Shown here: piece by piece, positions 607-21,978 of the stretch
Layout: the number at the start of each line of letters is the position of its first letter
Position numbering within the stretch: the stretch's first letter is position 1
Origin: an uncultured Clostridia bacterium
GTDB lineage: Bacteria > Bacillota > Clostridia > TANB77 > CAG-508
Assembly: GCA_944393735.1 (NCBI GenBank)
Contig: CALYBE010000001.1
Span: forward strand, 1-60,797
Direction: 5' to 3'
Length of the DNA stretch: 60,797 nt
The notes under the pieces: generated by a model
What the model was told of the DNA's origin: nothing
The model's input: the letters and a program-made list of their open reading frames with translations, nothing else
Database searches by the model: none
Position numbers and translations under genes: made by a program

Positions 607-651
607 AAAAATAATCATCTTAAGATGTTTCAAAATTTTATGAAATACCAT

Positions 652-688
652 AAAAGCTGTTGTTATAATATGATGCAACAGCTTTTTA
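652..688 (+). terminator. Rho-independent terminator after sigA
   Basis: Inverted repeat AAAAGCTGTTG / CAACAGCTTTT followed by a T-rich tail. Confidence 0.6.
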
Positions 689-859
689 TGATATACAAAT
701 ATAATTCTAAAAATATTCACAAAAAAGACATACAAAAAATGTATAATAAAAGACATAAAACTTAAAGTAATATAAATTAGAGTCATATTTTTTATATAAA
801 ATAGAAGGCGTAATAATTATTTTAAACCATATTTTCATAAAGAAAGGAAAGAAATAAAA

Positions 860-1540: not shown

Positions 1541-1550
1541 GGAATTTAAA

Positions 1551-3062: not shown

Positions 3063-3146
3063 AATTTAATAATAAAGAGACTATCGTGAAAGTTGCGTAA
3101 ATCGGAAGGGAACCCGATATACACAACTTTTTCTATACTCTCAAAA

Positions 3147-3178
3147 TAAAAACGAGATTTTTTAAAATCTCGTTTTTT
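3147..3178. terminator. Bidirectional hairpin terminator (kinase gene on +; ancestral tRNA-Gln terminator on -)
   Basis: AACGAGATTTT / AAAATCTCGTT stem is flanked by an A-run and a T-run, and abuts the left island repeat. Confidence 0.55.
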
Positions 3179-3190
3179 GGTTGGGCTGGC
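3174..3190. repeat. Island-distal att direct repeat (attL-like)
   Basis: TTTTTGGTTGGGCTGGC is identical to 16494-16510. It duplicates the last 13 nt of tRNA-Gln plus 4 nt. Confidence 0.85.
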
Positions 3191-3278
3191 AAAATATCTT
3201 TTGTAGGAAATGCTCGAATTTTCAGGATTTATAGGTTTTAACTTAAGTTTTTCATGCAATTTTCATGCGATTTAAAAA

Positions 3279-4739: not shown

Positions 4740-4926
4740 AAATAACCTTCTTTCTAATATTTTTACTGTTCAAAAAAATAAAAAAGTTGAACTTTTAATA
4801 AAAAAACAGGTTACCTGTGGATAAGTGGTTCGTAAAATTGAATATTTACCATTTATTACCAGATAATATCTATAAAATCATAAAAATTTAAATTTACTCT
4901 TTTTTACTGAAAAATTAATCATTTTA

Positions 4927-4955
4927 TTGACAGTTTTTTTTTTTTTTATTATAAT
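4927..4955 (+). promoter_or_regulatory. Consensus sigma-A promoter (TTGACA-17-TATAAT) with a T14 tract in the spacer
   Basis: TTGACA at 4927-4932, TATAAT at 4950-4955, and a 17-nt spacer that includes T14 (4934-4947). It lies ~55 nt upstream of the first T7SS-locus gene. Confidence 0.65.
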
Positions 4956-5007
4956 GAACTCAAAGTTATCATTATAAATGATAATAAATTATAAAGGAGG
5001 AAAAAAT

Positions 5008-5622
5008 ATGGCACAGATTATGAATGTTGATTATGAAGCAATGCCAAATCAAGCAAAACAAATGAGACAATATGCTATTGAACTTAATAATGAATTTAAA
5101 ACAGCATACTCATATATAGGAGATATGCATAACTCATGGTATGGAGTTAGATACAATGAGTTAGTAAGAGATTTTAATAACTTAGCACCACAGGTAAATA
5201 AACTATTAAATTTAGTAGTTACAGAAATTCCATTTGCATTAGAAACAATTGCAAATAATTATTCACAAGCAGATAGAGGACAAAATGCAACAACAGCAGA
5301 AGAAACAACACCAAATAGAATTGAAGATTTACCAATAATAAATGATGTGGGAATGAGATTTATAACTGAAGATGTTGCTAACACACAAAGAGCTGTAACA
5401 GAAAAATTTGAATCAGTAAAAGAATTAATGAACAAAATTGAAGCAGAATATGGAAAAGTACAATGGCAAAGTGAAGCTTCAGATAGTTTTAAGGCAAGGT
5501 TTACACAATTAAAGAATGAAATAATGTCATCAATAGAGAATATAAACATACAATTCACAAAATTAATGAATCAAACAAAACAAGATATTGAAACAACAGA
5601 AAAATCAAATACTGTTCAATAA
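5008..5622 (+). CDS. Tandem WXG100-like protein (putative T7SS substrate), paralog 1
   Basis: AAGGAGG lies 8 nt upstream of ATG 5008. The first half has W44-Y-G46 in a helix-turn-helix context. The second half has W153-Q-S followed by ASDSFKARF, a WXG100-like pattern. The protein is 204 aa, about twice the WXG100 size. Confidence 0.6.
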   Translation: MAQIMNVDYEAMPNQAKQMRQYAIELNNEFKTAYSYIGDMHNSWYGVRYNELVRDFNNLAPQVNKLLNLVVTEIPFALETIANNYSQADRGQNATTAEETTPNRIEDLPIINDVGMRFITEDVANTQRAVTEKFESVKELMNKIEAEYGKVQWQSEASDSFKARFTQLKNEIMSSIENINIQFTKLMNQTKQDIETTEKSNTVQ

Positions 5623-5625
5623 TAT

Positions 5626-5693
5626 GAAAGCACATATATGTGCTTTCTAAAGTAATATACAAATATTATTTTAGAAAGCATATATATGCTTTG
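5626..5693 (+). terminator. Two similar tandem hairpins after the WXG-like gene (attenuator or partial terminator)
   Basis: GAAAGCACATATATGTGCTTTC (5626-5647) and AAAGCATATATATGCTTT (5675-5693). Confidence 0.4.
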
Positions 5694-5721
5694 TTAGAAA
5701 AATTGAAAGGAGAATTTGACT

Positions 5722-6012
5722 ATGGAAAAAAGTTTTTTACCAATAGGTACAGTATTAAAATTAAAAGGGAGTAAAAAAAGATTAATGATAACAGGTTTTT
5801 TTCCAATTGAAAATGATAAAACAGAAGAAAATAAAAAAATGTGGGATTATAGTGGTTGTTTATATCCAGAAGGGATAATATCATCAAAAAACAATTTTTT
5901 ATTTAATCATAATCAAATAGATGAAGTTCAATTTATGGGATTTGTTGACGAAGAAGAAAAAAAATTTGAAGAAACAATGAAAAAAGCAATAGAAAAATTA
6001 TATAATAATTAA
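5722..6012 (+). CDS. DUF4176-like small protein (T7SSb-locus associated)
   Basis: The pattern LPIGTVLKLKGSKKRLMITG...WDYSGCLYPEG...FNHNQIDEVQFMGFVDEEE matches my recollection of the DUF4176 family. AAAGGAG lies 9 nt upstream of ATG 5722. Confidence 0.7.
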   Translation: MEKSFLPIGTVLKLKGSKKRLMITGFFPIENDKTEENKKMWDYSGCLYPEGIISSKNNFLFNHNQIDEVQFMGFVDEEEKKFEETMKKAIEKLYNN

Positions 6013-6031
6013 ACTAAGAGAGTGGAAAGTT

Positions 6032-9000
6032 ATGTTAGTAACACTAATTGGAAAAAATACTTTATATAAATTGAAATTACCAAATGAACATGATGGTAAT
6101 TATTGGATTAAAAATGATAATGAAACAAAGTTAGTTAATATTTTTGGAAGAAAAGATGAATGGCAAATATGTAGTAATGAACAAGTTAAAATATTGGCAC
6201 CAAAATCAATAACTTCTTTTAATATATCTAAGATAAAAGATGATCCAAAAAATATAATTAATAAAGTAGTGCTAAGAGAAGGAGGCATCTATTACTTAGC
6301 ATTAGATGCAGATCCTAATATTTTATTTATATTACTTTGTGAATCTATTTATGAAAGAAATTTTATACATTTACAAGTTACAGATTTTAAAAATATAACA
6401 ATTGGTAGAAGTCAAACGTGTGATATAGTTTATGATAATCCATTAATAGAACCATTACAAGCAAAAATTTTTTTGAATAATGAGAAATTGATGATTAAAA
6501 ACTTTGATACTAATTATGGAACTTTTTTAAATAATATACCAGTATCAAATAAGTTAAAACTACTTTTTTATGGTGAGATGATATTTATTATGGGATTAAG
6601 GATTGTAATTGTTGGAAAAAATATTTTTATAAACAATCCTTATAATAGAGTAACATACAATCATGAAAAATTTCAAATTATAAAAAATAATCATGAAATA
6701 ATTACTTCAATGGAAAAAAAAGATGAAAATGTAAAATTACTTTCAAAAGATGATTTTTTTACAAGAGCACCTAGGATAATTGGTAAGATTGAAAAGGAAA
6801 AGATAAAGATTGACCCTCCACCACAAAAGCAAGAAAAAAATGATAAACCATTAATATACATCATAGGACCAAGTATAGCAATAAGTATTGTTATGTTAAT
6901 GTCTTTGATATCAACAATAAGTGGTGCTTCAGGAGGAAATTCATCAAAAGCAAGAATAGTTATGTCAGTAATTACAATAGGTGCAATGTTAATAAGTATA
7001 ATACTTTTTCCAATATTAAACAATAAATATGAAAAAAAGAAAAAGAAAAAAAGAGAACAAAAAAGACAAAAAAAATATAAAGAATATATAGAAAAAAAAT
7101 TGGAACAAATAGATGATGTAATGCAAAAACAAAAGAATATTTTATTTGATGAATTTTTATCTTCAGAGGATTGTGCACAAATAATTTTGAATAAAGGCTC
7201 AAGACTTTGGGAGAGAAGAATAAATGATGATGATTTTCTTTCAATAAGAGTTGGATTAGGAAATGTACCATTAGAAGCTGATATAGAATATCCCAATAAA
7301 GAGTTTTCATTAGAAGAAGATAATTTGTTGGATTTAATAAAATATGTGGCAAATAAATCAAAATTGATTAAAAATGCTCCAATAGTAGTATCACTCACTT
7401 CTAAAAATATAGCAGCCTCAATCATAGAAAATGATGAAAGAAATACAGAAAAATTTATACAAAATTTAGTTATGCAATTAATAGCACTACATAGTTATGC
7501 GGATTTGAAAATAGTGTTTTTTTTAAAAAAAGGAAAACAAATAAAATGGGAACATATGCAAACGATTCCACACATTTGGGATAATCAAAGGCAGATAAGA
7601 TTTTGGGCAGATGACTATGAAGAAATGAAAGAAATATCAAGATATTTAGAGGTGGAATTTAATGAGAGAAAAAAATATGGAGATAAATTTGATTATAAAA
7701 CATTTTCTCCATACTATTTAATAATAACTGATGACTATAAAACAATTGCAAACTTAAAAATAGTTACAGAAATTTTAAGTATAAGAAAAAATATAGGGTT
7801 TAGTTTATTCTGTATAACTGATAATTTCATTAATTTACCTAATGAATGCCAATTATTTATAAGCATAGATGGAAATAAAGGGAAGATATTTGAAAACAAA
7901 ATAACAGAAACAACTCAAAATGAATTTTATTTTGATAATTCATTTACATTCTTTTTTGAAAATATGGGTCCAATATTATCGAATATACAAATAAGGGAAA
8001 ATACAACATCAAAATTTTCTTTACCAGAAAGTTATACATTTTTAGAAATGTATGATGCAGGAAGAATAGAACAATTAAATATATTACAGAAATGGAGAAC
8101 AAATGATTCAACTAAATCATTACAAGCACCTATAGGAATAGATATAAATGGTAATCAAATAGTATTAGATATACATGAAAAAGTACATGGACCACATGGC
8201 TTAATTGCTGGAAGTACCGGTTCTGGAAAGAGTGAATTAATAATAACTTATATACTGTCTTTAGCAGTAAATTATCATCCTAATGATGTTGAAATTATTT
8301 TAATAGATTATAAAGGAGGAGGACTATCAGGAGCTTTTCAAAAAGGAGATGTAAAGTTGCCTCATATAGTTGGAACAATTACAAATATAGATAAAGCAGG
8401 TTTACAAAGGTCACTTGTATCTATACAAAGTGAATTAAGAAGGAGACAAGTAAAATTTAATCAAGCACGAGAAAAAACAGATGAAGGAACAATTGATATA
8501 TATAAATATCAGAAATTATATCATGATGGACAGGTAAGTGAGCCAATACCACATTTATTAATAATTTGTGATGAATTTGCTGAATTAAAACAACAACAAC
8601 CAGATTTTATGGATGAATTAATGAGTGTCGCTAGAATAGGACGTAGTTTAGGTGTACACTTAATATTATCAACACAGAAACCAGCTGGTATAGTAAATGA
8701 CCAAATACGTAGTAATAGTAGATTTGAAATTTGTCTAAGAGTACAAGATAGGCAAGACAGTATTGATGTAATAAAAAGACCAGATGCAGCTGATATTAAA
8801 AATGCTGGACAGTTTTATATGTTAGTTGGAAATGATGAATATTTTACTTTTGGACTTTCTGCTTGGTCTGGAGCAAGTTATGAACCATCTGATATTATAA
8901 AGAAAAGTATAGATACTTCAATTAAATTTGTTTCTAATACAGGTTCTGTAATAAAAAAAATAGATGATAATCATAAAAAGGTTCCAATAAAGAAAAAAGA

Positions 9001-10612
9001 AGAACAATTAACAAATATTGTAAAATACATATATGAATTAGGAAAAAGTGAAAATATTAAGCTAAAACCATTATGGTTAGATACACTGCCAAATGTAATT
9101 TTATTAAATGAAATAAAGAAAAAGTATAATATAACTAAAAAAGCTGAAGATATAGTACCAGTGATTGGTGAATATGATGACCCATATAATCAAAGACAAG
9201 GTGTTGTGGAATTAAACTTTAAAAAGCAAGGTAATACAATTATATATGGAAATGCTGAAAGTGGTAAAGAGACTTTAATAAGTACAATGATATTTGATAT
9301 AATTTCAACATATGATGTAGATGAAGTACAATTATATTTATTAGATTTTGGTAGTGAAACATTAAAAATTTTTAATAATGCACCACATGTAGGAGACGTA
9401 GTTTTAAGTTTGGATTCAGAAAAAATAAGTAGATTATTTGAAATGCTTCAAAAAGAAATGAAAAGAAGAACAGAATTATTATCTAATTATGGTGGAGACA
9501 TAAAATTATATATAAAAGATACTAGAAATGCAATGCCACAAATTATAATTGTAATAAATAATTATGAAGGATTTGTAGAAAACTATGGTGAAAAATATGA
9601 TGATGTTTTACTTACTCTATGCAGAGAAGGTATAAAATATGGAATAATATTTGTATTATCAGTTAGTTCATATAACAGTATAAGATATAGATTATTACAG
9701 AATTTTAAGCAAAAAATAGCATTGCAATTGAATAATGAAGATGATTATAACAATATATTAGAAGGAATAAAAAAACAAAGACCATCACATATATTTGGTC
9801 GAGGTTTAATAAGATATGATGATATATATGAATTCCAAACAGCAACAATATGTAAAGCAGAAGAATGGAATTTATATGTAAGAAAAAAAATAGAAAAATT
9901 AAATGAAAAGTATACTAAAAAGGCTACCCCAATACCTGTATTACCAAAGAAAGTAGATATAAATGATATAAAAGAAAAAATAAAAAGTTTGGATAAATTA
10001 CCAATAGGTATATATAAATCAAATTTAAGTATAGCAACTTATGATTTTAAAAATAGTTTTATTAATATTATATCTGCAAAAAATACAGAGGTTGTTGCTG
10101 AATTTTTAATACATATTTATGAAATTTTAAAACTTATTGAAGATGTTAATATTGAAATATTTGATGGAGAAGGAATTATACGAAACAATTCAAATAATAT
10201 TAAACTTGAATATAAAAATTTTTTATTCAAAATGCAAAATAATCTAGATAAATCAAAATATAATGTATGTATAATTATTGGAATTGATAAGTTTTTAACA
10301 AGTATAGATAGTGATTTTATCCAAGATTTAAAAATAGCAGAAGAAACAAAAAAATATATATTTATTATTGCTGATAGTGTTTACAAACTAAAAAATCATG
10401 AATATGATGACTGGTATAAAAAATTTGTTACAAAAGATAAGGGAATTTGGATTGGAAATGGAATAAGTGATCAATATTTATTACATTTAAATTCAATTAA
10501 TAGAAATATTATAAATAATTGTGGAAATAGTTTTGGATATATTATTGAACAAGAAGAAGCAAAAATGATTAAGCTTGTAGGAATGAAAGATGTTGGTGAT
10601 GAAAATGAATAA
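6032..10612 (+). CDS. essC: T7SS EssC/YukB-type FtsK-SpoIIIE ATPase with N-terminal FHA-like domains
   Basis: The protein is 1526 aa. FHA-like segments are present (ITIGRSQTCDIVYDNP...GTFLNN). Two TM helices lie around aa 280-330. P-loop 1 is GSTGSGKS with Walker B LLIICDEFAEL. P-loop 2 is GNAESGKET. The third module is degenerate. Confidence 0.9.
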   Translation: MLVTLIGKNTLYKLKLPNEHDGNYWIKNDNETKLVNIFGRKDEWQICSNEQVKILAPKSITSFNISKIKDDPKNIINKVVLREGGIYYLALDADPNILFILLCESIYERNFIHLQVTDFKNITIGRSQTCDIVYDNPLIEPLQAKIFLNNEKLMIKNFDTNYGTFLNNIPVSNKLKLLFYGEMIFIMGLRIVIVGKNIFINNPYNRVTYNHEKFQIIKNNHEIITSMEKKDENVKLLSKDDFFTRAPRIIGKIEKEKIKIDPPPQKQEKNDKPLIYIIGPSIAISIVMLMSLISTISGASGGNSSKARIVMSVITIGAMLISIILFPILNNKYEKKKKKKREQKRQKKYKEYIEKKLEQIDDVMQKQKNILFDEFLSSEDCAQIILNKGSRLWERRINDDDFLSIRVGLGNVPLEADIEYPNKEFSLEEDNLLDLIKYVANKSKLIKNAPIVVSLTSKNIAASIIENDERNTEKFIQNLVMQLIALHSYADLKIVFFLKKGKQIKWEHMQTIPHIWDNQRQIRFWADDYEEMKEISRYLEVEFNERKKYGDKFDYKTFSPYYLIITDDYKTIANLKIVTEILSIRKNIGFSLFCITDNFINLPNECQLFISIDGNKGKIFENKITETTQNEFYFDNSFTFFFENMGPILSNIQIRENTTSKFSLPESYTFLEMYDAGRIEQLNILQKWRTNDSTKSLQAPIGIDINGNQIVLDIHEKVHGPHGLIAGSTGSGKSELIITYILSLAVNYHPNDVEIILIDYKGGGLSGAFQKGDVKLPHIVGTITNIDKAGLQRSLVSIQSELRRRQVKFNQAREKTDEGTIDIYKYQKLYHDGQVSEPIPHLLIICDEFAELKQQQPDFMDELMSVARIGRSLGVHLILSTQKPAGIVNDQIRSNSRFEICLRVQDRQDSIDVIKRPDAADIKNAGQFYMLVGNDEYFTFGLSAWSGASYEPSDIIKKSIDTSIKFVSNTGSVIKKIDDNHKKVPIKKKEEQLTNIVKYIYELGKSENIKLKPLWLDTLPNVILLNEIKKKYNITKKAEDIVPVIGEYDDPYNQRQGVVELNFKKQGNTIIYGNAESGKETLISTMIFDIISTYDVDEVQLYLLDFGSETLKIFNNAPHVGDVVLSLDSEKISRLFEMLQKEMKRRTELLSNYGGDIKLYIKDTRNAMPQIIIVINNYEGFVENYGEKYDDVLLTLCREGIKYGIIFVLSVSSYNSIRYRLLQNFKQKIALQLNNEDDYNNILEGIKKQRPSHIFGRGLIRYDDIYEFQTATICKAEEWNLYVRKKIEKLNEKYTKKATPIPVLPKKVDINDIKEKIKSLDKLPIGIYKSNLSIATYDFKNSFINIISAKNTEVVAEFLIHIYEILKLIEDVNIEIFDGEGIIRNNSNNIKLEYKNFLFKMQNNLDKSKYNVCIIIGIDKFLTSIDSDFIQDLKIAEETKKYIFIIADSVYKLKNHEYDDWYKKFVTKDKGIWIGNGISDQYLLHLNSINRNIINNCGNSFGYIIEQEEAKMIKLVGMKDVGDENE

Positions 10613-10856
10613 AGTATTAGTAAAAGTATATGTACCTATGTTAGAAGAAATTTATGATGTATGGATTCCTACTAATAAAAAAGTATATGAAATTATAGTA
10701 TTATTGGTGAAAGCGATTAAAGATTTAAGTGAAAAATGTTATAATCCAAAAGAATTCCCAACATTATATGATAAAATAACAGGAAATGAATTCGATTTAA
10801 ATTTATTATTAAATGATACAACAATAAAGAATGGAACAGAATTGGTTTTAATATAA
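10605..10856 (+). CDS. esaB: YukD/EsaB-like small ubiquitin-fold T7SS protein
   Basis: The 83-aa product overlaps the essC stop by 8 nt. Position, size and N-terminal beta-strand pattern (VLVKVYVP...YDVWIP) fit YukD/EsaB. Confidence 0.6.
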   Translation: MNKVLVKVYVPMLEEIYDVWIPTNKKVYEIIVLLVKAIKDLSEKCYNPKEFPTLYDKITGNEFDLNLLLNDTTIKNGTELVLI

Positions 10857-10884
10857 TACCAAAGTATTTTGAAAGGAAGATATA

Positions 10885-11712
10885 ATGAAAACACTAAAAT
10901 ATGAAAATATTGATCAGAACAAAGACAGTTCCAATGTTAGTATAAATGAGTTGTTAAAAGAGGATAAGCAATTAGTTTCTTTTATTGGACCAAGACAGAG
11001 TGGAACATCATTTCTTATAGATAATATATCAAAAATATTAGCTAGAAGAGATATAGATGTTGCAATATTAGATTTGACATCAAATAGAGCATCATATTAT
11101 ATATATACAAAAAATGAAGAAAAATTAAAACAACAACAAAAAAACTGCCTAAAAAATATAGCAGAGGGTAATCCATTAGGAATTCAAGTTGAAAAAAACT
11201 TAGTAGTTTATACAGATCTACAACGAGAAAATGAAAAAGACTTAAAAGCAGAAAAAATATTAGAAGTATTGTTAAAAAAACATAAAATAATAATTTTAGA
11301 TACTGACTTTTCAACTGATGTAAGTTACTTTTTATATTCTAAAAAAATATATTTAGTGCAGACAATGGATGTTCTAACTATCCAATCATTTACAGAATTT
11401 TTATCTAAATTAAAATTGCAAAATGCTATAAATGATGAGAAAATAAGAGTTGTGTTAAATAAATTTATAAATTTAAATGGAATTACAGAAAAAGAATTAA
11501 TAAATAGATTAGCATTTTATAATGATCCGACAAAATCATATATGCAACAATTATTTGAGAAAAATGGATTAAAGTATACAACAATTCCATATAATCAGCT
11601 TGCATATGAAACATATTTACAATATATGGCAGAATATAAAATAACTAAAGTTGAATATATAATAGGTTTTAAAAACCAACTAGATGGTTTAGCAGATGAT
11701 GTTATAAGTTAA
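10885..11712 (+). CDS. ParA/MinD-fold (SIMIBI) protein with a degenerate Walker A
   Basis: VSFIGPRQSGTSFLIDNISKILA sits at the P-loop position and lacks both lysines. A Walker-B-like IIILDTD and VVLNKF are present. Confidence 0.55.
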   Translation: MKTLKYENIDQNKDSSNVSINELLKEDKQLVSFIGPRQSGTSFLIDNISKILARRDIDVAILDLTSNRASYYIYTKNEEKLKQQQKNCLKNIAEGNPLGIQVEKNLVVYTDLQRENEKDLKAEKILEVLLKKHKIIILDTDFSTDVSYFLYSKKIYLVQTMDVLTIQSFTEFLSKLKLQNAINDEKIRVVLNKFINLNGITEKELINRLAFYNDPTKSYMQQLFEKNGLKYTTIPYNQLAYETYLQYMAEYKITKVEYIIGFKNQLDGLADDVIS

Positions 11713-11751
11713 AATATTTAAATTAAAATTAAAAGGAAGGAATGATTCACA

Positions 11752-11922
11752 TTGGATAGTAAAACTTTTTATACAAATAGTATAAATAAAAAATTTACAA
11801 CAATTAGTGGTAAAGATAAATTAAAAGGAGAATTATTCACAAAACTTATTGAACAAACAAATGAAATGATTGATAATACAAATACAAATAAAGATAATAT
11901 ACTAAAAAATATAAAAAAATAG
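11752..11922 (+). CDS. Small 56-aa helical protein upstream of the effector (below the ORF-track size cut-off)
   Basis: A TTG start lies 11 nt after AAAAGGAAGG. The frame is open to TAG at 11920-11922, which overlaps the RBS of the next gene. Product: LDSKTFYTNSINKKFTTISGKDKLKGELFTKLIEQTNEMIDNTNTNKDNILKNIKK. Confidence 0.4.
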   Translation: MDSKTFYTNSINKKFTTISGKDKLKGELFTKLIEQTNEMIDNTNTNKDNILKNIKK

Positions 11923-11935
11923 TTAGGAGGAAAGT

Positions 11936-13759
11936 ATGTTTAGTTTTTGCGAAGATGTATTTAATGAATTATGTACAAGCTTAGAGAATACAATACAAGA
12001 AATAATAACAGAAGCTAATGATAGTAAAAGTAGCGCAGAGACATTAAAACAAGAAGCAGTAGCATTAAGAGAACAAGCAGCAGAATTAAGGGAACAAGCA
12101 GTAGCATTAAGAGAACAAGCTAAAGCATTAAGAGCACAAATTCCAGGTTTAAGGGAACAAGCAGCAGTACTTTATGCAAAGCAAGAATGGAAAACAGTAA
12201 CTTCAACAGTAACAAATTCAGAAACAGGAGAAGAAGAAACAGTAAGTGAAACTGTAAGAGATTATGAAGCAGAGGCCGCCAATCAAGCACAAGCAGCAGC
12301 ATTGGAATCACAAGCAAATGCACTAGAAGTACAAGCAGCCGAACTAGAATCACAAGCAAACTCAAAAGAAGCAGAAGCTACAGTAAAAGAAGCAGAAGCA
12401 ATAGCAAAAGAAGCAGAGGCTGCAGCACTAGAATCATTATCATCAGTTTTGACAGCATCATCTGAAGCAATAGGATCACAAATAAACACATTTAAGGAAG
12501 CAAAAGTAGAAGTAGAAAAAGCTACAAATGCAACAACATCATTATTAAATGAGGGATTAAATTTAATTTCTAGTTCTTTAAGTGCAATAAGTAATGCAAG
12601 TAATTTTATAATAGGTGATTGGGGAAATGGATTAGCTTCAAATATAATAGAGAATGTTGGGACTGAAATAAAGGGAGGAATTGAAAAACTCCAAGAAATG
12701 GCAAATGAAGTTATAGATAATGTAAAAATAGCTACAACAAATGTACAAGAATTTACTAGTGAAATTGGAAATTATATTATGGAAAGTCCTTTAGGACAAG
12801 CAGCAAAAGAATTTATAGATGGTTTTACAGAACAGAATGTAGAAAGTTTGATTGATCAAAATAGAGCGAAATTAGCTAATAATATTGTATCTGCACTAAC
12901 TTTTTTTGGAGCGGATCCGGAATTTATAGAGACTATCATGGGAGATTCTGTCACAATAGAGCTAACAAATTCAGTGGAAACATTTGAAGAAGCAAAAGCA
13001 GAAGCAAAAAGATTATATGTAGAATATATAAATGGATTAGATTATACTGATGAAGAAAAACAACAATTAATTAATAAATTTAATACTGCCGTGGACAATA
13101 TAGAAGTGTTATCTGATCAGGATATGGCTAAATTAATGGGTAATGGTGATAGTGGTTTTATAACATTGGCATTTTACAATGGACCATTGGATAAAGCATA
13201 TATAAGAGAATCATCAAAAATAGACGTAGCAACAATAATTCATGAAGTAGGAGGACATGGAACAGGAAGCATGATACCACCTGAATATCAAGGGTATCAT
13301 TACTTTGATGAAGAACTTCAAAGATATGTAAAATATGAAGGAAATTTTGAGGATGCAGATTGCTTTTTACTATATATGTCAACTTCAGATAAAAATGGAA
13401 CAATTTATGCTGGAATTGATGAGGCAACTACGGAATATTTTACAAGAAAAATATATGGAGAAGTAGAAAGTACCAGTGCATATAACGGAAGTACTGATAC
13501 ATTAGAAAGTATTACTGAATCAATGAAAGAATATTGTGGTATTGATGGTGAGAAATTATTGTATGAAACATATACTGGAGAAGATAAAGATGCATTTAAG
13601 AATGTATATAATGAAATTATGGGAGATGATACAGCTTATGATGAATTAACTAATATAATGTATTCTAATAATACACAAGGTGGTTCTGAATTTACTTTGG
13701 ATGTTGAAGCATTTGCATTTGATGTAAAATGCAAGCAATACAAACAACAGAAAAAATAA
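11936..13759 (+). CDS. Putative T7SS-secreted effector: coiled-coil repeat N-terminus with a C-terminal H-E-x-x-x-H domain
   Basis: The protein is 607 aa with no signal peptide or TM segment. It has Ala/Glu/Gln-rich heptad repeats, and HEVGGH at aa 436-441. It lies inside the T7SS-like locus, followed by a small gene. Confidence 0.5.
   Translation: MFSFCEDVFNELCTSLENTIQEIITEANDSKSSAETLKQEAVALREQAAELREQAVALREQAKALRAQIPGLREQAAVLYAKQEWKTVTSTVTNSETGEEETVSETVRDYEAEAANQAQAAALESQANALEVQAAELESQANSKEAEATVKEAEAIAKEAEAAALESLSSVLTASSEAIGSQINTFKEAKVEVEKATNATTSLLNEGLNLISSSLSAISNASNFIIGDWGNGLASNIIENVGTEIKGGIEKLQEMANEVIDNVKIATTNVQEFTSEIGNYIMESPLGQAAKEFIDGFTEQNVESLIDQNRAKLANNIVSALTFFGADPEFIETIMGDSVTIELTNSVETFEEAKAEAKRLYVEYINGLDYTDEEKQQLINKFNTAVDNIEVLSDQDMAKLMGNGDSGFITLAFYNGPLDKAYIRESSKIDVATIIHEVGGHGTGSMIPPEYQGYHYFDEELQRYVKYEGNFEDADCFLLYMSTSDKNGTIYAGIDEATTEYFTRKIYGEVESTSAYNGSTDTLESITESMKEYCGIDGEKLLYETYTGEDKDAFKNVYNEIMGDDTAYDELTNIMYSNNTQGGSEFTLDVEAFAFDVKCKQYKQQKK
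12056..12160 (+). repeat. Five tandem 21-nt (7-aa) coding repeats
   Basis: Units start at 12056, 12077, 12098, 12119 and 12140. Units 1 and 3 are identical (GCAGTAGCATTAAGAGAACAA). They encode A(V/A)(A/E)LREQ. Confidence 0.9.
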
Positions 13760-13782
13760 TGTGGAAAGGAGATTAAATTAAA

Positions 13783-14292
13783 ATGGAAAATAATACAGTA
13801 ATAGAAGACTTAACAAAAGAGTTTGTAAATACAATTCCAAATGATGAAGATAAACAAGAATTGAAACAAGCATTCGAAAAATATTTATATGAATATAAAA
13901 AAGTACTAGAAAAATCTAATATAAATTCAATTGATGATGCATTAAAATTCTCAGCAAATAAAATAATGAAATTGCCATTATATAGTAAAAAACAAAAGCT
14001 AATTGAAGACGAGAGTTTTAAAGAAATACAAAAAATTTCATCAAAAGCTTTTGAACTAGCAAAAAAAGTTGTAACAGGAAAAAAAGAAGATATAGATAAG
14101 AATTTGCTAGAAGAAATGAAAAATAAGCTAAAGATATGTTTAAATGATGTAAGAGAATTTAATAAGCAACAAGCAAGTATGCTAGTTTCTGAGGGGATAT
14201 TAGATTTAGTGTTTGTAGAAAATCCAAAAACACATTTAATAAGTATAAGATTGGGAAAAAATGCAATTAGGTTAAAAAATAATATGAATTAA
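13783..14292 (+). CDS. Hypothetical cytoplasmic helical protein; candidate immunity or chaperone partner of the effector
   Basis: The 169-aa product starts 23 nt after the effector stop. It has a GGAG RBS and no hydrophobic segments. No domain is recognised. Confidence 0.35.
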   Translation: MENNTVIEDLTKEFVNTIPNDEDKQELKQAFEKYLYEYKKVLEKSNINSIDDALKFSANKIMKLPLYSKKQKLIEDESFKEIQKISSKAFELAKKVVTGKKEDIDKNLLEEMKNKLKICLNDVREFNKQQASMLVSEGILDLVFVENPKTHLISIRLGKNAIRLKNNMN

Positions 14293-14341
14293 TAGGAAAG
14301 TAAAACATATTAAAAAAAAAGAATATAGAAGGAGGAAAACT

Positions 14342-14953
14342 ATGAGTCTAACGATAACAGTAGACTATGAGAATATACCAGGACAATCTAGTCAAGCGAG
14401 AAATATTGGAATGCAAATAAATGAAATACTATTAGATGTATATAGAAATGTAACTAATATGCATAATTTCTGGTATGGAAAAAGATATAATGATATTGTA
14501 ACAAATTTTAATAGTTTAGTGCCTCAACTAAATAACTTCTTAGAAATAGTTGTATCAGAAATTCCATATATATTTGAGAAAATAGTAAATAATTTCTCTG
14601 AGGTAGATATTAAACAAAATATGACAGTAGCTCAAAAAGAAAGTGTACAACAAATTCAAACAATTCCATTATCTACAGAAGTAGGAATGAAGTATATTCA
14701 AGGGGAAGTGGCTAATATACAAAATGCAATAGAATCAGATTTTCATGAAATAATAAGTCTAATGAGTGGATTAGAAAATACAATAAATCAAATAGGAATA
14801 GAATATGAAACAGCTGATAATTTTAAGTCAGAGTTTAAAAGTTTAGCTAATTCATTTAGACAATTTATAGAAAATCTAGAAAGACAATTTACAAATGCAA
14901 TGAATGTAAATAGAACTCAAATACAAAAAGCAGAGTCAGGAAATACAATTTAA
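14342..14953 (+). CDS. Tandem WXG100-like protein, paralog 2
   Basis: It has the same architecture and conserved blocks as 5008-5622 (MHNFWYGKRYNDIV..FN.L.PQLN...VVSEIPY...NNFSE.D). GGAGG RBS. Confidence 0.6.
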   Translation: MSLTITVDYENIPGQSSQARNIGMQINEILLDVYRNVTNMHNFWYGKRYNDIVTNFNSLVPQLNNFLEIVVSEIPYIFEKIVNNFSEVDIKQNMTVAQKESVQQIQTIPLSTEVGMKYIQGEVANIQNAIESDFHEIISLMSGLENTINQIGIEYETADNFKSEFKSLANSFRQFIENLERQFTNAMNVNRTQIQKAESGNTI

Positions 14954-15200
14954 TTAATAAGCAAAATAATTATACAAATAAATATCTGACTATAATTTAT
15001 CAACTGAAAGTCGTCAATTAACAAATGTAATTAGAAAACATATAATATATTAAATTAGAAGTGAAAGGAATGATAAAAATGATATTAAAAAATATAATCG
15101 TTAATTGTTATTGTAGGTAACAATACTCTGTCTATTGTAGACATGAGTATTAAAATTCATGCCTACAATAGAGATTATATTTTATTAAATAAATTATAAG

Positions 15201-15236
15201 ACTATGTGGACATATATGTTACACATAGTTTTTTTT
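15201..15236 (+). terminator. Hairpin plus T7 terminator/attenuator ahead of the cysK fragment
   Basis: ACTATGTG...CACATAGT stem followed by TTTTTTT. Confidence 0.5.
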
Positions 15237-15253
15237 GTTAGGAGGGATTTCAA

Positions 15254-15781
15254 ATGTTTGAAAAAAATGGAGTCATAGGAAATACACCAATGATAAAAAT
15301 AAATTATAAATACAATGGAAAAGAAAAAAGGATATTTACCAAATTAGAATATTTTAATTTAACAGGAAGTATAAAAGACAGAGTTGCATTTTATATAATT
15401 AATAATGCTAAAAAAAGAGGAATTTTGAAAGAGAAAATGCCAATAGTTGAAGCTACAAGTGGAAATACAGGAATAGCATTATCAGCATTAGGAAGTTATT
15501 ACAAACATCCAGTATATATCTTTATGCCAGATTGGGCTAGTAAAGAAAGAATTGAAATAATGAAAAGCTATGGTGCAAAAATATTTTTATTTTCAAGAGA
15601 AGATGGTGGATTCATAAGATGTGTAAATGAGGCAGAAAAATTGGCAAAAGAAATAAATGGATTTTGGGCTAATCAATTTTCTAATAAAGATAATTATCTG
15701 GCTCACTATGAAATAACAGGAGAAGAGATATTAAGACAGCTTCCAGAAAAAATAATAGTTGCAATTCATATATTAATGTAA
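15254..15781 (+). pseudogene. cysK: Truncated cysteine synthase (CysK/CysM family) fragment
   Basis: The N-terminal ~165 aa match the PLP cysteine synthase pattern (GNTPM, SIKDR, TSGNTGIALS). The frame ends at 175 aa, before the GTGGT loop; full-length enzymes are ~300 aa. Confidence 0.7.
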
Positions 15782-15822
15782 TATAATGATAGTGAATAAA
15801 GATGTTGAAAGGGGGAATTGCA

Positions 15823-16323
15823 ATGGAAGAAAATATAAAATACAAAAATGATATAGTACAAGATGCATATTATCTAATAAAAAAATTTAAAGATGATGGA
15901 AAAAGTGTAACTAATTTACAAATACAAAAATTAATGTATTTTTTTGAAGCATATTATATGAATGTATATGATGTTGATAAATTGTATGATTGTAATTTTT
16001 GTGCATGGGCATATGGACCTGTAGCAATTCCACTATATAAAGAGCTAAAGAAATTTGGAAATGACAATATAGAATTGACAGAAGAAAATATAGATAGTGC
16101 AGAAAAGGTTTTTGAAGACAAAAAGAAATTACTAGACCAAATATATAATGTATTTAAAGATGTACCAGCAATGACCCTTGTAGATTTTACACATATGACT
16201 GGTTCTCCGTGGAAAGAAGTGTGGGAAAGAAACGGAGAAAAAGTAGGATATGGTGCAAATACATATATAGACAAAATAAAAACGAAAGAATGGTTTAAAG
16301 ATGTCTTCCAGAAAAGAACATAA
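15823..16323 (+). CDS. Panacea (DUF4065, SocA/GepA-like) domain protein; putative antitoxin
   Basis: NLQIQKLMYFFEAYY...FCAWAYGPVAIPLYKELKKFG matches the DUF4065 core. GGGGG RBS lies 7 nt before ATG 15823. Confidence 0.7.
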   Translation: MEENIKYKNDIVQDAYYLIKKFKDDGKSVTNLQIQKLMYFFEAYYMNVYDVDKLYDCNFCAWAYGPVAIPLYKELKKFGNDNIELTEENIDSAEKVFEDKKKLLDQIYNVFKDVPAMTLVDFTHMTGSPWKEVWERNGEKVGYGANTYIDKIKTKEWFKDVFQKRT

Positions 16324-16493: not shown

Positions 16494-16510
16494 TTTTTGG
16501 TTGGGCTGGC
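16494..16510. repeat. tRNA-proximal att direct repeat (attR-like)
   Basis: TTTTTGGTTGGGCTGGC is identical to 3174-3190 and overlaps the tRNA-Gln 3' end. Confidence 0.85.
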
Positions 16511-16572
16511 TAGATTCGAACTAGCGCATGTTAGAGTCAAAGTCTAATGCCTTACCGCTTGGCTACAGCCCA
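16498..16572 (-). tRNA. tRNA-Gln (anticodon UUG)
   Basis: The reverse complement UGGGCUGUAGCCAAGCGGUAAGGCAUUAGACUUUGACUCUAACAUGCGCUAGUUCGAAUCUAGCCAGCCCAACCA folds as a cloverleaf. Anticodon loop is CUUUGAC, T-loop is UUCGAAU, and CCA is encoded. Confidence 0.9.
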
Positions 16573-16660
16573 GTATTAAATATTTTTTGTGGATATAGTC
16601 CTCATACTGATGCAAAATTTGCAATATCGAACATTGAAATCCACTCTTTTTGGAAAGTTA

Positions 16661-16738
16661 TGGGGTGGAAGATGGGACTCGAACCCACGGTCTCCAGTGC
16701 CACAAACTGGCGCGTTAACCAACTACGCTACATCCACC
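16661..16738 (-). tRNA. tRNA-His (anticodon GUG) with extra G-1
   Basis: The reverse complement is GGUGGAUGUAGCGUAGUUGGUUAACGCGCCAGUUUGUGGCACUGGAGACCGUGGGUUCGAGUCCCAUCUUCCACCCCA. Anticodon loop is UUGUGGC, G-1 pairs with C73, and CCA is encoded. There is one U:U mismatch in the acceptor stem. Confidence 0.85.
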
Positions 16739-17179
16739 ATTGAGTTCGCTCATTTGTGAGCACAGTATATATTTTAATCTCATTTTGATGATTTGTCAAG
16801 ACATTTTCAAGAATTTGTTAAAGTTTTTGTTTCAAAAGTTATAATTCATGTCTTATAAGATTATCCAAATAATATTGATATATTAATATTTCATAAATTT
16901 TTCGACTCAATGCAAAAATTAAAAATCTCTAAAATAATTTTACCGCCTCCATTCACTTAATCCTCGAAATTTATAATCATTTTAAAAGTAGTAAATTGTT
17001 TCATATTGATTTTTTACCTAAAATCTGTTAATATATAGTATGTAAATATGAGAAAAAAATAAAAGAAAAATCCTTATTTTATAGATAAAATAAAGATTTT
17101 TGCACAAAAAACAATGGCTTTGCACATAAATAATTTAAAAAGGAGGAAGTGTTAGTAGCAAGCTAGCATAAGAACAATT

Positions 17180-18557: not shown

Positions 18558-19208
18558 ATGGAAAATTTTTATACAGTTCAGAATGAAGAAACAGCTGAGA
18601 TAGTAGAGAAGAAATCAAAATTCATAGCAACAATATTGAATGTAGAGAATGTAAGTCAAGCTGAGAAAAAAATAAAAGACATAAAAAAGAAATTTCACGA
18701 TGCAAAGCACAATTGTGTAGCATATAGAGTAATAGAGAATGGCAGACTTATAGAAAAATCAAGTGACGATGGTGAACCATCAGGTACAGCAGGAGGACCA
18801 ATTCTTAATATTTTACAAAAGACTAATTTATGTAATGTATTAGTTGTTCTCACAAGATATTTTGGAGGAATTTTATTAGGAACAGGTGGACTTGTTAGAG
18901 CTTATTCAGAAGTTACTCAAAAAGCAATAGATAAATGTAAATTAGTATATAAATTAAAAGGTGTAGAAACAGAAATAAAATTGGATTATGCTAATTTAGA
19001 ACTTTTTAAATATTATTGTAAAAATAATGAAATTAAAATAATAAATATAGAATATTTAGAAGATATAAATATAAAAATAGAAATGGAAGAAAATAGAAAA
19101 AATATTTTTTTGAAAGATATTGAAACAAAAAACATAAATATAAAGAAAATTCAAGACTTTAAAGAAAAATATATAAATAAAACTGTTGAAAAAATAAATA
19201 AATGGTAA
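18558..19208 (+). CDS. yigZ: YigZ/IMPACT-family protein
   Basis: KSKFIA...A.HNCVAYR....SDDGEPSGTAG.PIL...VVLTRYFGGI.LG.GGLVRAY pattern. Confidence 0.8.
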   Translation: MENFYTVQNEETAEIVEKKSKFIATILNVENVSQAEKKIKDIKKKFHDAKHNCVAYRVIENGRLIEKSSDDGEPSGTAGGPILNILQKTNLCNVLVVLTRYFGGILLGTGGLVRAYSEVTQKAIDKCKLVYKLKGVETEIKLDYANLELFKYYCKNNEIKIINIEYLEDINIKIEMEENRKNIFLKDIETKNINIKKIQDFKEKYINKTVEKINKW

Positions 19209-19225
19209 AAATTGCCAAAAAACTC

Positions 19226-19254
19226 TTGCAAAAATTTTCCTAAAGTATTATAAT
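19226..19254 (+). promoter_or_regulatory. Candidate sigma-A-type promoter upstream of spo0A
   Basis: TTGCAA (19226-19231), a 17-nt spacer, and TATAAT (19249-19254). Confidence 0.4.
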
Positions 19255-19297
19255 CAAAAATGTAAATTTTTTACAGTAAAATTTAGGAGGAAAAAAC

Positions 19298-20122
19298 ATG
19301 AGAGAAAAAATCAAAGTTTTAATTGCAGATGACAACCAAGAATTTAGCATGACATTAGCTACATATTTAAAAAGCCAAGATGATATGGCAGTAATTGGAA
19401 GAGCCAAAGATGGAAATGAAGCAGTAGACATGATAACTAATTTAACACCAGACATAGTACTATTAGATGTAATCATGCCACATTTAGATGGAATAGGAGT
19501 TTTGGAAAAATTAAATATGATAAAAATGAGCAAAAAACCAATCTGTATAATGTTATCAGCAGTAGGGCAAGACAAAATTACAAGAAGAGCAGTTGAGTTA
19601 GGTGCAGAATATTATGTGGTAAAACCATTTGACATTGAATTATTAATTTCAAGAATTAGAGAATTAAAAAATTACAAGCCAACACAAGCCAATAATTTCA
19701 TATCAAAAGATATGGCAATGACAAAAACTCAGTATATAGACATTTCAAGTAATACAGAAAATAAAGAAAATAACTTAGAAGCATTAGTTACAAATGTAAT
19801 ACATGAAGTTGGAGTTCCAGCACACATAAAAGGATATCAATATTTAAGAGAAGCAATTATTATGGTAGTTAAAGACATTGATGTAATTAATCAAATTACC
19901 AAAAGTTTATATCCTGAAATAGCAGAAAAATTTCACACAACCCCTTCGCGAGTAGAACGTGCAATCCGTCATGCCATTGAAGTTGCCTGGGGAAGAGGCC
20001 AACAAGATGTTGTAGAAAACATTTTTGGCTATACAATTTCAGCAGCAAAAGGCAAGCCTACAAATAGTGAATTTATTGCAATGATTGCTGATAAGTTAAG
20101 ATTAGAACTAAAGAGTGCTTAA
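19298..20122 (+). CDS. spo0A: Sporulation master regulator Spo0A
   Basis: Receiver domain plus the Spo0A-specific C-terminal domain ([35 protein letters not shown]). Confidence 0.95.
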
Positions 20123-20481
20123 CAAACAATTATACCTAAAATTTTCTAAATTATGAAGTCATATTTTCCATAATTTTTCTTTAATAAATCTCATCTTTTT
20201 ATAAAAACATAAAATAATAGCAACAAAATGAAAATAACAATAGAGAACAAGAGAATAAACAAAAAAATCGAAGAGATATTAAATAAAATGACATATTTAT
20301 ATAAAAAAACGATTAGTTGATTTTTTTTATTTTTTATAGTATAGTAAGAATATAAAAAAAGAGTTAAGATTTTCTAAAAACAAATTGTCATAAGAAAATC
20401 TTTCACTTTTAAAATATATTCTAGAGAGACACAACAATATGATTACGTGTCTTTCCAAAGAATAAAAAAGGAAATAAACAA

Positions 20482-21978
20482 ATGAAAGAAAATCGAACAC
20501 TAATGCAATATTTTGAATGGTATTTAAAACCAGAAGATAAACTTTGGAAAAAAGTCATTGCAAATGCACAAGATATAGCAACAATTGGAATAACTGACGT
20601 GTGGTTACCACCCGCATATAAAGGTGCAGGAGGTAAGTATGATGTAGGATATTCCGCATATGACCTATATGATTTAGGAGAATTTGACCAAAAAGGTAGT
20701 GTTGAAACAAAATATGGTACTAAAGAGGAATATTTACAAGCAATTAATGAATTACACAAAAACAATATAAAAGTATATGCAGATATTGTTTTAAATCATA
20801 AAATTGGAGCGGATGAACCAGAAACAGTATATGCAAGTGAAGAAGAACAGAAAAATCGAAATATAGATAAAACATTGCCAAAAAAAATTATAGCATGGAC
20901 AGTATATAATTTCAAAGGCAGAAATAATAAATATTCAGATTTCAAATGGAATTATACTCATTTTAATGGAACTGATTGGGATGAAAGCGGAAGAAAAAAT
21001 GGAATATTCAGATTTTGTGGAAAACATTGGGACCAAAATGTAGACACAGAAAATGGAAACTATGATTATTTAATGGGAGCAGATATAGATTTTAATAATC
21101 CAGAAGTTGTTAAAGAACTTATAAAGTGGGGAAAATGGTATTTAGAAGTAACAGAAGTAGATGCATTTAGGTTGGATGCAGTAAAACATATTAAATCAAC
21201 ATTTATGGCTGAATGGGTAAGAGCTATGCGTGAAGAAAAGCCAATACAATGTGTTGGAGAATATTGGAACAGGGATTTAAAAGCCCTAATACATTATATA
21301 GAAAAAACAAATTCAAGTATACCATTATTTGATGTTCCACTTCATTACAATTTATACGAAGCTTCAAATTCTGGTGGAAAATATGACATGGCAAAAATAT
21401 TAGATAATACTTTAGTAAAGGAAATGCCACAATTAGCTGTAACATTTGTAGATAATCATGATACAGAGCAGGGACAAGCCCTATTCTCTTGGATACAAAA
21501 TTGGTTTAAGCCATTAGCATATGCTTTAATTTTATTAAGAAAAGATGGACTTCCTTGTGTTTTCTATGGAGACTTTTATGGAGTACCATCAGGCAATATT
21601 GCTCCTATGAGAGATTGGCTAGAAAAATTGATAAAAGCAAGAAAATACTTTGCATATGGAGAGCAAATAGATTATTTTGATCACCATGATGTTATTGGTT
21701 GGGTAAGAGCTGGTGATGATGAACACCAAAATTCAGGAATGGTAGTAATTATGAGTGACGGACCTGGAGGAGGAAAAACTATAAATGTAGGAAAGAGACT
21801 TGCAAATAAAATATTTTATGATTACACAGGAAATGTTAAAGAAACAGTATATGTTGACAAAGAGGGTAATGGAATTTTCTATTGTAATGGAGGAAGTGTT
21901 TCTGTTTGGGTCAATAGGGACGGAGATTTGGTCAATGGGGACGGAGATTTTGACAACTTTTATAATAAAAAAATTTGA
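20482..21978 (+). CDS. amyA: Cytoplasmic GH13 alpha-amylase; the last ~20 codons are REP-derived
   Basis: TLMQYFEWY, DVVLNH-like IVLNHK, GFRLDAVKHI, and FVDNHD catalytic regions. No signal peptide. The 3' end reads through REP copies (21910-21957). Confidence 0.9.
   Translation: MKENRTLMQYFEWYLKPEDKLWKKVIANAQDIATIGITDVWLPPAYKGAGGKYDVGYSAYDLYDLGEFDQKGSVETKYGTKEEYLQAINELHKNNIKVYADIVLNHKIGADEPETVYASEEEQKNRNIDKTLPKKIIAWTVYNFKGRNNKYSDFKWNYTHFNGTDWDESGRKNGIFRFCGKHWDQNVDTENGNYDYLMGADIDFNNPEVVKELIKWGKWYLEVTEVDAFRLDAVKHIKSTFMAEWVRAMREEKPIQCVGEYWNRDLKALIHYIEKTNSSIPLFDVPLHYNLYEASNSGGKYDMAKILDNTLVKEMPQLAVTFVDNHDTEQGQALFSWIQNWFKPLAYALILLRKDGLPCVFYGDFYGVPSGNIAPMRDWLEKLIKARKYFAYGEQIDYFDHHDVIGWVRAGDDEHQNSGMVVIMSDGPGGGKTINVGKRLANKIFYDYTGNVKETVYVDKEGNGIFYCNGGSVSVWVNRDGDLVNGDGDFDNFYNKKI
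21910..21957 (+). repeat. REP copies (one partial plus one full) at the left end of the RAYT unit
   Basis: GTCAATAGGGACGGAGATTTG is followed by GTCAATGGGGACGGAGATTTTGACAAC. The latter is the exact reverse complement of 22835-22861. Confidence 0.9.

Follow-up and report, generated by a model that had tools for sequence, protein, structure and literature searches.

The stretch of DNA considered here, which we call the window, comprises 60,797 nucleotides (nt) of contig CALYBE010000001.1 from an uncultured Clostridia bacterium (assembly GCA_944393735.1). In it a gene for a small protein of 56 amino acids (aa), a gene for a repeat-rich 607-aa protein, a gene for a 169-aa protein and a gene for a protein with two fused WXG100 domains (tandem WXG100) follow one another between positions 11752 and 14953. 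Judged by gene content and gene order, this is the substrate (effector) module at the 3' end of a conserved and compact nine-gene operon, 4978-14953, which resembles a type VII secretion system (T7SS). Table 1 lists the features. A sequence-only reading of the window had earlier described the first three of these genes as an effector module, and the positions of their open reading frames (ORFs), the 23-nt gap between the 607-aa and 169-aa genes and the place of the HEVGGH motif were all given correctly. Since one tandem WXG100 gene closes each substrate module, as it does in the related loci L001 and L018, we extend the module to 14953, beyond the coordinates of that reading. For the comparison, local hidden Markov models (HMMs) of the hairpin, middle and peptidase domains, of the 169-aa protein and of the small protein were run on all ORFs of the window and of 13 distinct loci.

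Table 1. Features of the cassette and of its substrate module (positions in the window)
Feature	Position	Strand	Basis or remark
Sigma-70-like promoter, TTGACA-17-TATAAT	4927-4955	+	12/12 consensus; ahead of the cassette
First tandem WXG100 gene	4978-5622	+	Pfam WXG100, E 4.1e-11
DUF4176 gene	5716-6012	+	Pfam/NCBIfam scans
EssC-like FHA+FtsK ATPase gene	6032-10612	+	FtsK_SpoIIIE, E 1e-50; FHA, E 4.2e-9
YukD-like protein gene, 88 aa	10590-10856	+	
ParA/MinD-like protein gene, 275 aa	10885-11712	+	weak CbiA match
56-aa small protein gene, TTG start	11752-11922	+	conserved homologues
607-aa three-domain putative T7SS substrate/effector	11936-13759	+	ORF, alignment, AlphaFold2
N-terminal coiled-coil hairpin domain, aa 1-198	11936-12529	+	AlphaFold2 and local HMM 'nterm'
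Five 21-nt/heptad repeats, hairpin arm 1	12056-12160	+	Tandem Repeats Finder
Ala/Glu-rich heptad block, hairpin arm 2, period 21/42	12285-12436	+	Tandem Repeats Finder
Gly-rich middle domain, aa 199-334	12530-12937	+	HMM 'mid', AlphaFold2
C-terminal domain, aa 335-607 (273 residues)	12938-13756	+	AlphaFold2, profile searches
HEVGGH, aa 436-441, putative zinc-binding/catalytic motif	13241-13258	+	predicted helix aa 431-443
DEATTE, aa 495-500	13418-13435	+	predicted helix aa 492-507, with E496 as putative third metal ligand
169-aa cytosolic partner of the C-terminal domain	13783-14292	+	alignments A4, A6
Second tandem WXG100 gene, 203 aa	14342-14953	+	Pfam WXG100, E 2.7e-5

The 607-aa protein is acidic (110 Asp and Glu against 46 Lys and Arg) and its gene is preceded by AGGAGG at 11925-11930. 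As had been said of it before, it shows no signal peptide, nor does it have a transmembrane segment, the highest Kyte-Doolittle mean over 19 residues being 1.09. In the 169-aa protein this maximum is 0.77, and in all three proteins, of 56, 607 and 169 aa, the hydrophobic stretches are too short to form a signal peptide or a transmembrane helix.

An AlphaFold2 model of the full-length protein, built on an alignment of eight sequences, begins with a helix (aa 2-81), turns through a β-hairpin tip (aa 85-108, nt 12188-12259) and comes back in a return helix (aa 110-225), which extends past the hairpin domain. The predicted local distance difference test (pLDDT) lies between 83 and 96 in the stretch aa 31-90 and between 81 and 95 in aa 101-150. 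Foldseek matches of the full-length model (V-ATPase stalks, NheA and Tsr) were set aside as uninformative coiled-coil look-alikes, and sequence searches of the PDB with the 607-aa protein and with profiles A2 and A5 returned designed coiled coils only, or nothing. The hairpin HMM matches substrates with four different C-termini, and we propose that the hairpin is a secretion or targeting domain common to all of the paralogous substrates.

Both repeat blocks of the gene lie in this domain. The five 21-nt units encode AVALREQ, AAELREQ, AVALREQ, AKALRAQ and IPGLREQ, and Tandem Repeats Finder scores them at 126 with a period of 21 and 4.7 copies; the identity of units 1 and 3 at the DNA level and the second, Ala/Glu-rich block, both noted by the sequence-only reading, were reproduced. 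In the predicted structure the two blocks are the two arms of one long antiparallel coiled-coil hairpin. Between species both arms change their length together: homologue P0003 has exactly 7 aa fewer in each arm, distant homologues have 23 aa fewer in arm 1 and 28 aa fewer in arm 2 (alignment A1), and in P0016 both heptad arms are greatly lengthened. It had been suggested that perfectly repeated 21-mers could drive length variation, and this was not borne out. Three strain-level assemblies (X6, X15 and X16), which differ from the window by 4-46 substitutions, contain no insertion or deletion in the repeat blocks; minor variants can go unseen in contigs. A length of 607 residues is also that of the close homologues P0001 and P0002. 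That such perfect repeats show no length variation among strains can be explained by their being the arms of a hairpin, which must change length together.

The Gly-rich middle domain is helical in the model at low confidence, with pLDDT below 50 over aa 199-345. Its HMM is found once or twice in paralogues, the domain being duplicated in some of them. It was shown that DUF4176 proteins are chaperones which bind the disordered middle domains of T7SSb toxins (PMC12478183). We propose that the middle domain is the binding site for the 56-aa protein, for the DUF4176 chaperone, or for both.

The 56-aa ORF is, as its conservation indicates, a real gene. A GGAAGG lies 11 nt upstream of its TTG start. 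The sequence-only reading placed the ORF correctly and had it end inside the ribosome-binding site of the 607-aa gene, which is slightly off: the TAG at 11920-11922 stops 2 nt before the AGGAGG and abuts it. Homologues of 58-93 aa share 15 invariant positions and a conserved C-terminal half, (D/N)KLKGxLF(T/S)KLIxxTN(E/D)xI, so that a lack of conservation in homologous loci, which that reading had named as a possible refutation, was not found. Compared with its L001 counterpart, the window ORF has 29 identical codons, 8 synonymous differences and 17 non-synonymous ones. No Pfam or NCBIfam family matches the protein. Across the substrates, the small ORF lies directly upstream of eight of the nine that have a middle domain and of none that lack it (the 425-aa protein of L018 and the substrates of L011, L013 and L016). 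This co-occurrence shows that the small protein tracks the middle domain and not the hairpin. Its pairing with the N-terminal region, as had been envisaged, was dropped for this reason, and the likely partner of the 56-aa protein within the 607-aa protein is the middle domain.

The C-terminal domain was modelled separately from 22 sequences, with a pLDDT of 90.9 and a predicted template modelling score of 0.89. Its predicted order is β strands, the HEVGGH helix, a β insertion, the DEATTE helix and five further helices. The H, E and H of HEVGGH are nearly invariant and so are E496, T499 and E500; H, E, H, E and E are kept in about 20 of the 22 aligned sequences, which span 21-55% identity. The family pattern on the second helix is (N/D)E(A/S)xT(E/D). 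At the position of HEVGGH several relatives have a canonical HExxH: HESNH in P0011, HE(x)NH(x)LG in a sister clade (P0023 and P0025-29), HEGDH in P0034 and HEINH in P0035, the last two from a later search. A divergent paralogue in L018 (568-1896) has HELVH together with FNEAVTD. From these relatives we can conclude that the clade of the window gained one Gly, which gave HExGGH. The sequence-only reading had cautioned that the motif is HExxxH and not the canonical zincin HExxH. The caution was reasonable; it is eased by the canonical motif of the sister sequences and by the finding that HEXXGH is a functional zinc motif in M49 peptidases, a family which also has HEXXH members (PMC5805324, PMC9820243).

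Taken with the predicted secondary structure, these motifs make it probable that the C-terminal domain belongs to an undescribed family of gluzincin-type metallopeptidases. As in thermolysin (M4) and collagenase (M9), the HExxH-type motif lies on a helix, here a predicted one, that follows predicted β strands, and (N/D)ExxT(E/D) on the second predicted helix resembles NEXXSD of thermolysin, whose Glu is the third zinc ligand (PMC5424795). Unlike in these gluzincins, the motif has six residues in the window clade, the helical C-terminal subdomain finds no counterpart, and the distance between the two helices is 55 residues as compared with 20 in thermolysin. In Pfam and NCBIfam scans, neither any of the module proteins nor the alignment of 22 C-terminal domains rose above noise, and PDB sequence searches with C-terminal domain profiles gave no recognisable match; weak matches to Reprolysin, M10 and M91 came from HExxH members only. 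Membership of M49 (dipeptidyl peptidase III) was rejected, as there is no Pfam M49 match and the hexapeptide alone is shared. The second motif of M49 is EEXR(K)AE(D); it is absent here, with DEATTE in its stead. The M49 enzymes are also two-lobed cytosolic exopeptidases of about 700 aa, unlike the 273-residue domain, and the likeness in the hexapeptide is convergent.

The gene for the 169-aa protein follows the gene with the peptidase domain in 10 distinct loci, L013 and L016 included. In the window, L001 (after the 587-aa gene), L004, L006, L009, L010, L011 and L018-20 (after the 425-aa gene) it comes directly after it. A homologue of the partner also follows what we call type-2 toxins in L013 (hhalign probability 99.4%, E 2.8e-21) and L016 (HMM E 1.4e-23), whose N-terminal 500-600 residues are unrelated. 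Three paralogues with hairpin and middle domain and without the peptidase domain (511 aa in L001, 395 aa and 569 aa in L018) are not followed by it. The partner thus co-varies with the peptidase domain independently of the N-terminus, which is the behaviour of an immunity protein or inhibitor, and based on this co-occurrence we propose that the 169-aa protein is the cognate inhibitor or immunity protein. Four type-1 partners conserve LVSEGxLD; with the type-2 partners added, only S, E and D are invariant. A search for partner homologues found single-domain proteins of 165-247 aa only, and the two genomic contexts that were looked up were both linked to a cassette.

The paralogues share the hairpin and differ at the C-terminus, which can be the peptidase, duplicated middle domains, a coiled coil or the divergent HELVH peptidase. 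In L001 a 511-aa paralogue (1668-3203) shares 69% identity with its neighbour across aa 1-334; a second Gly-rich middle domain replaces the peptidase domain in it, a small ORF lies upstream, and the locus holds a second DUF4176 gene. L018 and L020 contain an expanded cassette (568-15288) with four substrates which share the hairpin domain: a 442-aa protein with the divergent peptidase (HELVH), a 425-aa protein which has the peptidase with HEVGGH and lacks a middle domain, and proteins of 395 aa and 569 aa with one or more middle domains and a C-terminal coiled coil. The first substrate slot is broken up into fragments in L019 and L020. The protein P0016 (L011, 783-2609) has QNANNG in place of HExGGH and NDASNG in place of DEATTE, is still followed by a gene for a 171-aa partner, and is, to judge from the lost residues, probably a catalytically dead paralogue.

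The type-2 toxins are 720-880 aa long and have canonical HExxH and different N-termini; that of L016 appears split into ORFs of 457 aa and 421 aa. Instead of the small ORF they are preceded by coiled-coil genes of 124 aa (L013, 927-1301) and 148 aa (L016, 6053-6499). The L013 gene has a weak YwqH-like match (E 0.0021), which suggests a Lap-like partner.

The whole family is very rare. The 607-aa protein has seven homologous clusters among 5.8 billion sequences, and in a set of 1.84 billion proteins the profile of the C-terminal domain matches 27 representatives, none of them with a Pfam domain. Its ecological weight is therefore probably small. Relatives with 33-47% identity conserve the small ORF, HExxGH, DEATTE and the 169-aa gene alike, which argues that these features of the module did not arise by chance. 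Between the window and L006 the apparatus is 61-76% identical (YukD-like protein 76%, EssC 73%, first tandem WXG100 73%, DUF4176 65%, ParA-like protein 61%) as compared with 36-49% for the module (second tandem WXG100 49%, 169-aa partner 45%, small protein about 40%, 607-aa protein 36%). This faster divergence of the module fits an effector and inhibitor pair.

The remaining genes of the cassette agree with a secretion function. The gene order is identical in L001, L004, L006, L009 and L018, is kept at different chromosomal sites with varying flanking genes in at least six loci, and recurs in metagenomic contigs and in two species known at the level of metagenome-assembled genomes, Clostridium sp. 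CAG:245 and a Clostridia bacterium. The DUF4176 gene is always immediately upstream of essC. The second tandem WXG100 protein is 38% identical to the first and scores 24.8 bits in Pfam, below the gathering cut-off of the family (27.3). The perfect promoter ahead of the cassette, together with the lack of a terminator-like site between 5684 and 14953, makes one operon probable. Directly 3' of the first tandem WXG100 gene there is a long stem-loop with 20 pairs (5626-5684); it could be an attenuator, yielding an excess of WXG transcript over the downstream genes. The ParA/MinD-like protein, which is kept in every cassette, reads G-P-R-Q-S-G-T-S at the Walker A position, without the lysine, and this lysine is missing in all five orthologues that were examined (GxxxSGT[ST]). 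From its sequence it may be a pseudo-ATPase or rely on an unusual P-loop; it has no PDB sequence match. The cassette also appears to relocate as a unit, as the genes that flank it in L006 (Impact, Spo0A and amylase) have window orthologues of 64-83% identity which are contiguous at 18558-21978 without a cassette. In the window the cassette is flanked by a phage-type tyrosine integrase (3279-4739, minus strand) and by tRNA-Gln and tRNA-His.

T7SS effector delivery is understood mainly from the LXG toxins of staphylococci, streptococci and bacilli. These polymorphic toxins of T7SSb, with Lap targeting factors, DUF4176 (Ltc) chaperones and immunity genes downstream (TelA-TelE and EsaD/EsaG are examples), have the same layout as the 607-aa protein, namely a helical targeting N-terminus, a poorly ordered middle and a C-terminal effector (PMC12478183, PMC10801868). 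Also as in the LXG systems, the locus has DUF4176 and WXG100-like genes and an EssC-type ATPase with FHA, the gene directly downstream, for a small cytosolic protein, tracks the toxin domain, and the C-termini vary among paralogues that share the hairpin. The differences are as clear: the N-terminus is a heptad-repeat hairpin with a β-hairpin tip, the WXG partners, at about 205 aa, are tandem WXG100 fusions and not Laps, and the middle domain has a novel 56-aa protein to accompany it. We rejected LXG family membership, as there is no LXG, DUF3130 or DUF3958 profile match; the two Lap families were sought in the cassette with Pfam and NCBIfam, and no LXG match was found by Pfam in the type-2 relatives either.

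EssC with FHA and FtsK and the WXG100 proteins are in common with T7SSb. EsaA, EssA and EssB are absent from the cassette, whose other ORFs show neither a match to them nor a transmembrane segment. With T7SSf of Clostridia the cassette shares WXG100, a YukD-like protein and an EssC orthologue that bears FHA domains at its N-terminus; T7SSf also has an extra cytoplasmic ATPase-like component (TsfV, with a TadZ-like part), as the ParA-like protein is here, and its loci likewise contain candidate substrates with WXG-like partners and immunity genes (PMC11217815). Unlike TsfV, the 275-aa protein has neither a receiver domain nor the Walker A lysine, and TsfF (a PPM phosphatase) and TsfJ (DUF6382 and FHA) are not among the nine cassette genes of the window, L001, L004, L006 or L018; a PP2C gene near L004 and L018 is part of a flanking housekeeping PrkC-type pair. 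Among the variants described by Garrett, Higginson & Palmer 2024, the cassette is nearest to T7SSf by gene content (PMC11217815), and it may be a further, minimal T7SS variant, set apart by its gene content.

The reading that we consider probable is that of an exported T7SS effector with a gluzincin-type C-terminal domain, a 56-aa helper and a 169-aa inhibitor or immunity protein. In such a mechanism the 607-aa protein would be exported by the EssC-like ATPase encoded upstream, with the coiled-coil hairpin as a shared recognition domain that probably bundles with the tandem WXG100 proteins, as LXG domains do with Lap partners. The 56-aa protein, perhaps jointly with the DUF4176 chaperone, would keep the Gly-rich middle domain in solution or in a folded state. 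In the C-terminal domain the proposed metal ligands are H436, H441 and E496 and the proposed catalytic base is E437, with HExxH converted to HExxGH by one extra Gly. The 169-aa protein would bind and block this domain in the cytosol of the producer, and proteolysis may be directed at a competing bacterium. The sequence-only reading had proposed, from what is generally known of T7SSb toxins, a polymorphic-toxin-like cassette in which a helper gene and an immunity gene accompany the effector gene. The comparative evidence speaks for it: EssC, DUF4176 and tandem WXG100 genes are in the same operon, the partner tracks the C-terminal domain and the C-termini of the paralogues differ; the Pfam LXG domain of such toxins is not part of it.

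Several observations weigh against this reading. No Pfam LXG match (PF04740) is found in the 607-aa protein in a scan to E 1, and a search for RNA runs returned none. The C-terminal model, in spite of its pLDDT of 90.9, has no significant zincin fold match by Foldseek in PDB or BFVD, so that the comparison which had been recommended for this region named no family; the best PDB match, and the only Foldseek match of any kind, is the peptidase domain of the M9 collagenase ColH (7zoc, E 0.21, probability 0.30), and no significant sequence or fold similarity to gluzincins was seen. P0016 has lost all of the putative ligands and retains the partner gene, and two genes with a peptidase domain, in L014 and at 568-1896 of L018 (HELVH), have no adjacent partner. 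The 587-aa gene of L001 has a middle domain and no small ORF directly upstream, which its 69%-identical paralogue does have. The search for partner homologues, with two contexts looked up, gave no sign of the orphan immunity arrays that are typical of antibacterial toxins. Finally, a peptidase-type substrate is in the same slot at every locus, which is more conserved than is usual for polymorphic toxins.

This last point leads to another explanation, in which the 607-aa protein is not a toxin and is instead a dedicated accessory of the machine, for example a peptidase whose task is to open the cell wall, or to process substrates, in a T7SS without EsaA, EssA and EssB; the 169-aa protein would then be a chaperone or an inhibitor acting before export. 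The same type of substrate follows the ParA-like gene in every locus examined, the cassette encodes no membrane or wall-spanning component other than EssC, and for the S. aureus T7SSb the recruitment of a dedicated wall hydrolase, EssH, is described (PMC13059805). We regard this explanation as unlikely, since the 607-aa gene diverges faster than the apparatus (36% as compared with 61-76% identity), the domain is also found at the C-terminus of the 720-880-aa proteins with other N-termini, paralogues swap their C-terminus, and there is no similarity to known peptidoglycan hydrolase families in Pfam or Foldseek.

No more probable, in our estimate, is a secreted protease directed at host or other extracellular proteins in the gut, with the 169-aa protein merely shielding the cytoplasm of the producer before export. 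The DNA is found nearly identical in chicken-gut (chicken gut and faecal) metagenomes, the lack of orphan immunity arrays and the single-domain, cassette-linked partner homologues would suit such a protease, and T7SS substrates of other species act on host cells (PMC8675928). On the other hand, antibacterial toxin-immunity pairs, too, combine strict pairing to a cytosolic inhibitor with rapid divergence. It is very improbable that the HExxGH domain is non-catalytic, the extra residue spoiling the metal site of a structural or adhesive substrate with a 169-aa export chaperone: P0016 keeps fold-level sequence and partner without the putative ligands and no peptidase matches the structure significantly, but the five residues are conserved in most of the aligned sequences, sister clades have canonical HExxH, and M49 enzymes are active with HEXXGH (PMC5805324).

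If the effector reading is taken together with the composition of the cassette, a broader picture can be drawn, which we put forward tentatively, as possible rather than probable. The nine genes would be a self-contained, relocatable and minimal T7SS subtype outside T7SSa-j, built from EssC, a YukD-like and a lysine-less ParA-like protein, DUF4176 and WXG100 proteins fused in tandem. A substrate family of its own, with the β-tipped heptad hairpin and a small protein specific for the middle domain, would belong to it. The C-terminal domain would define a new gluzincin family and, after M49, the second to have HExxGH and HExxH metal sites side by side. Already on the preferred reading the module follows the logic of the LXG systems (targeting, a chaperoned middle, an effector and a cognate inhibitor) with unrelated parts and in uncultured gut Clostridia. 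The cassette looks like the smallest T7SS gene set yet seen and can serve as a compact system for asking what EssC requires in the export of large substrates, while the module offers a peptidase-like fold that is undescribed, is modelled with confidence and switches naturally between HExxH and HExxGH, as well as a candidate protease-inhibitor pair.

Next to the cassette there are also a PALP/cysteine-synthase-like fragment, truncated to profile positions 4-158 of 295, and a gene with a SocA/Panacea antitoxin domain; this side of the cassette, tRNA genes included, takes in 15254-16323 and 16498-16737 (minus strand). The ORFs of 71, 48 and 56 aa that are listed at 16528-16759 overlap with the genes for tRNA-Gln and tRNA-His; they are almost certainly spurious. 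Further away, the window encodes a 3510-aa non-ribosomal peptide synthetase (41236-51768) with three sets of condensation, AMP-binding and PP-binding domains and a terminal reductase domain, and its gene is followed at 51787-53601 by that of a histidine kinase with an N-terminal region of seven transmembrane segments.

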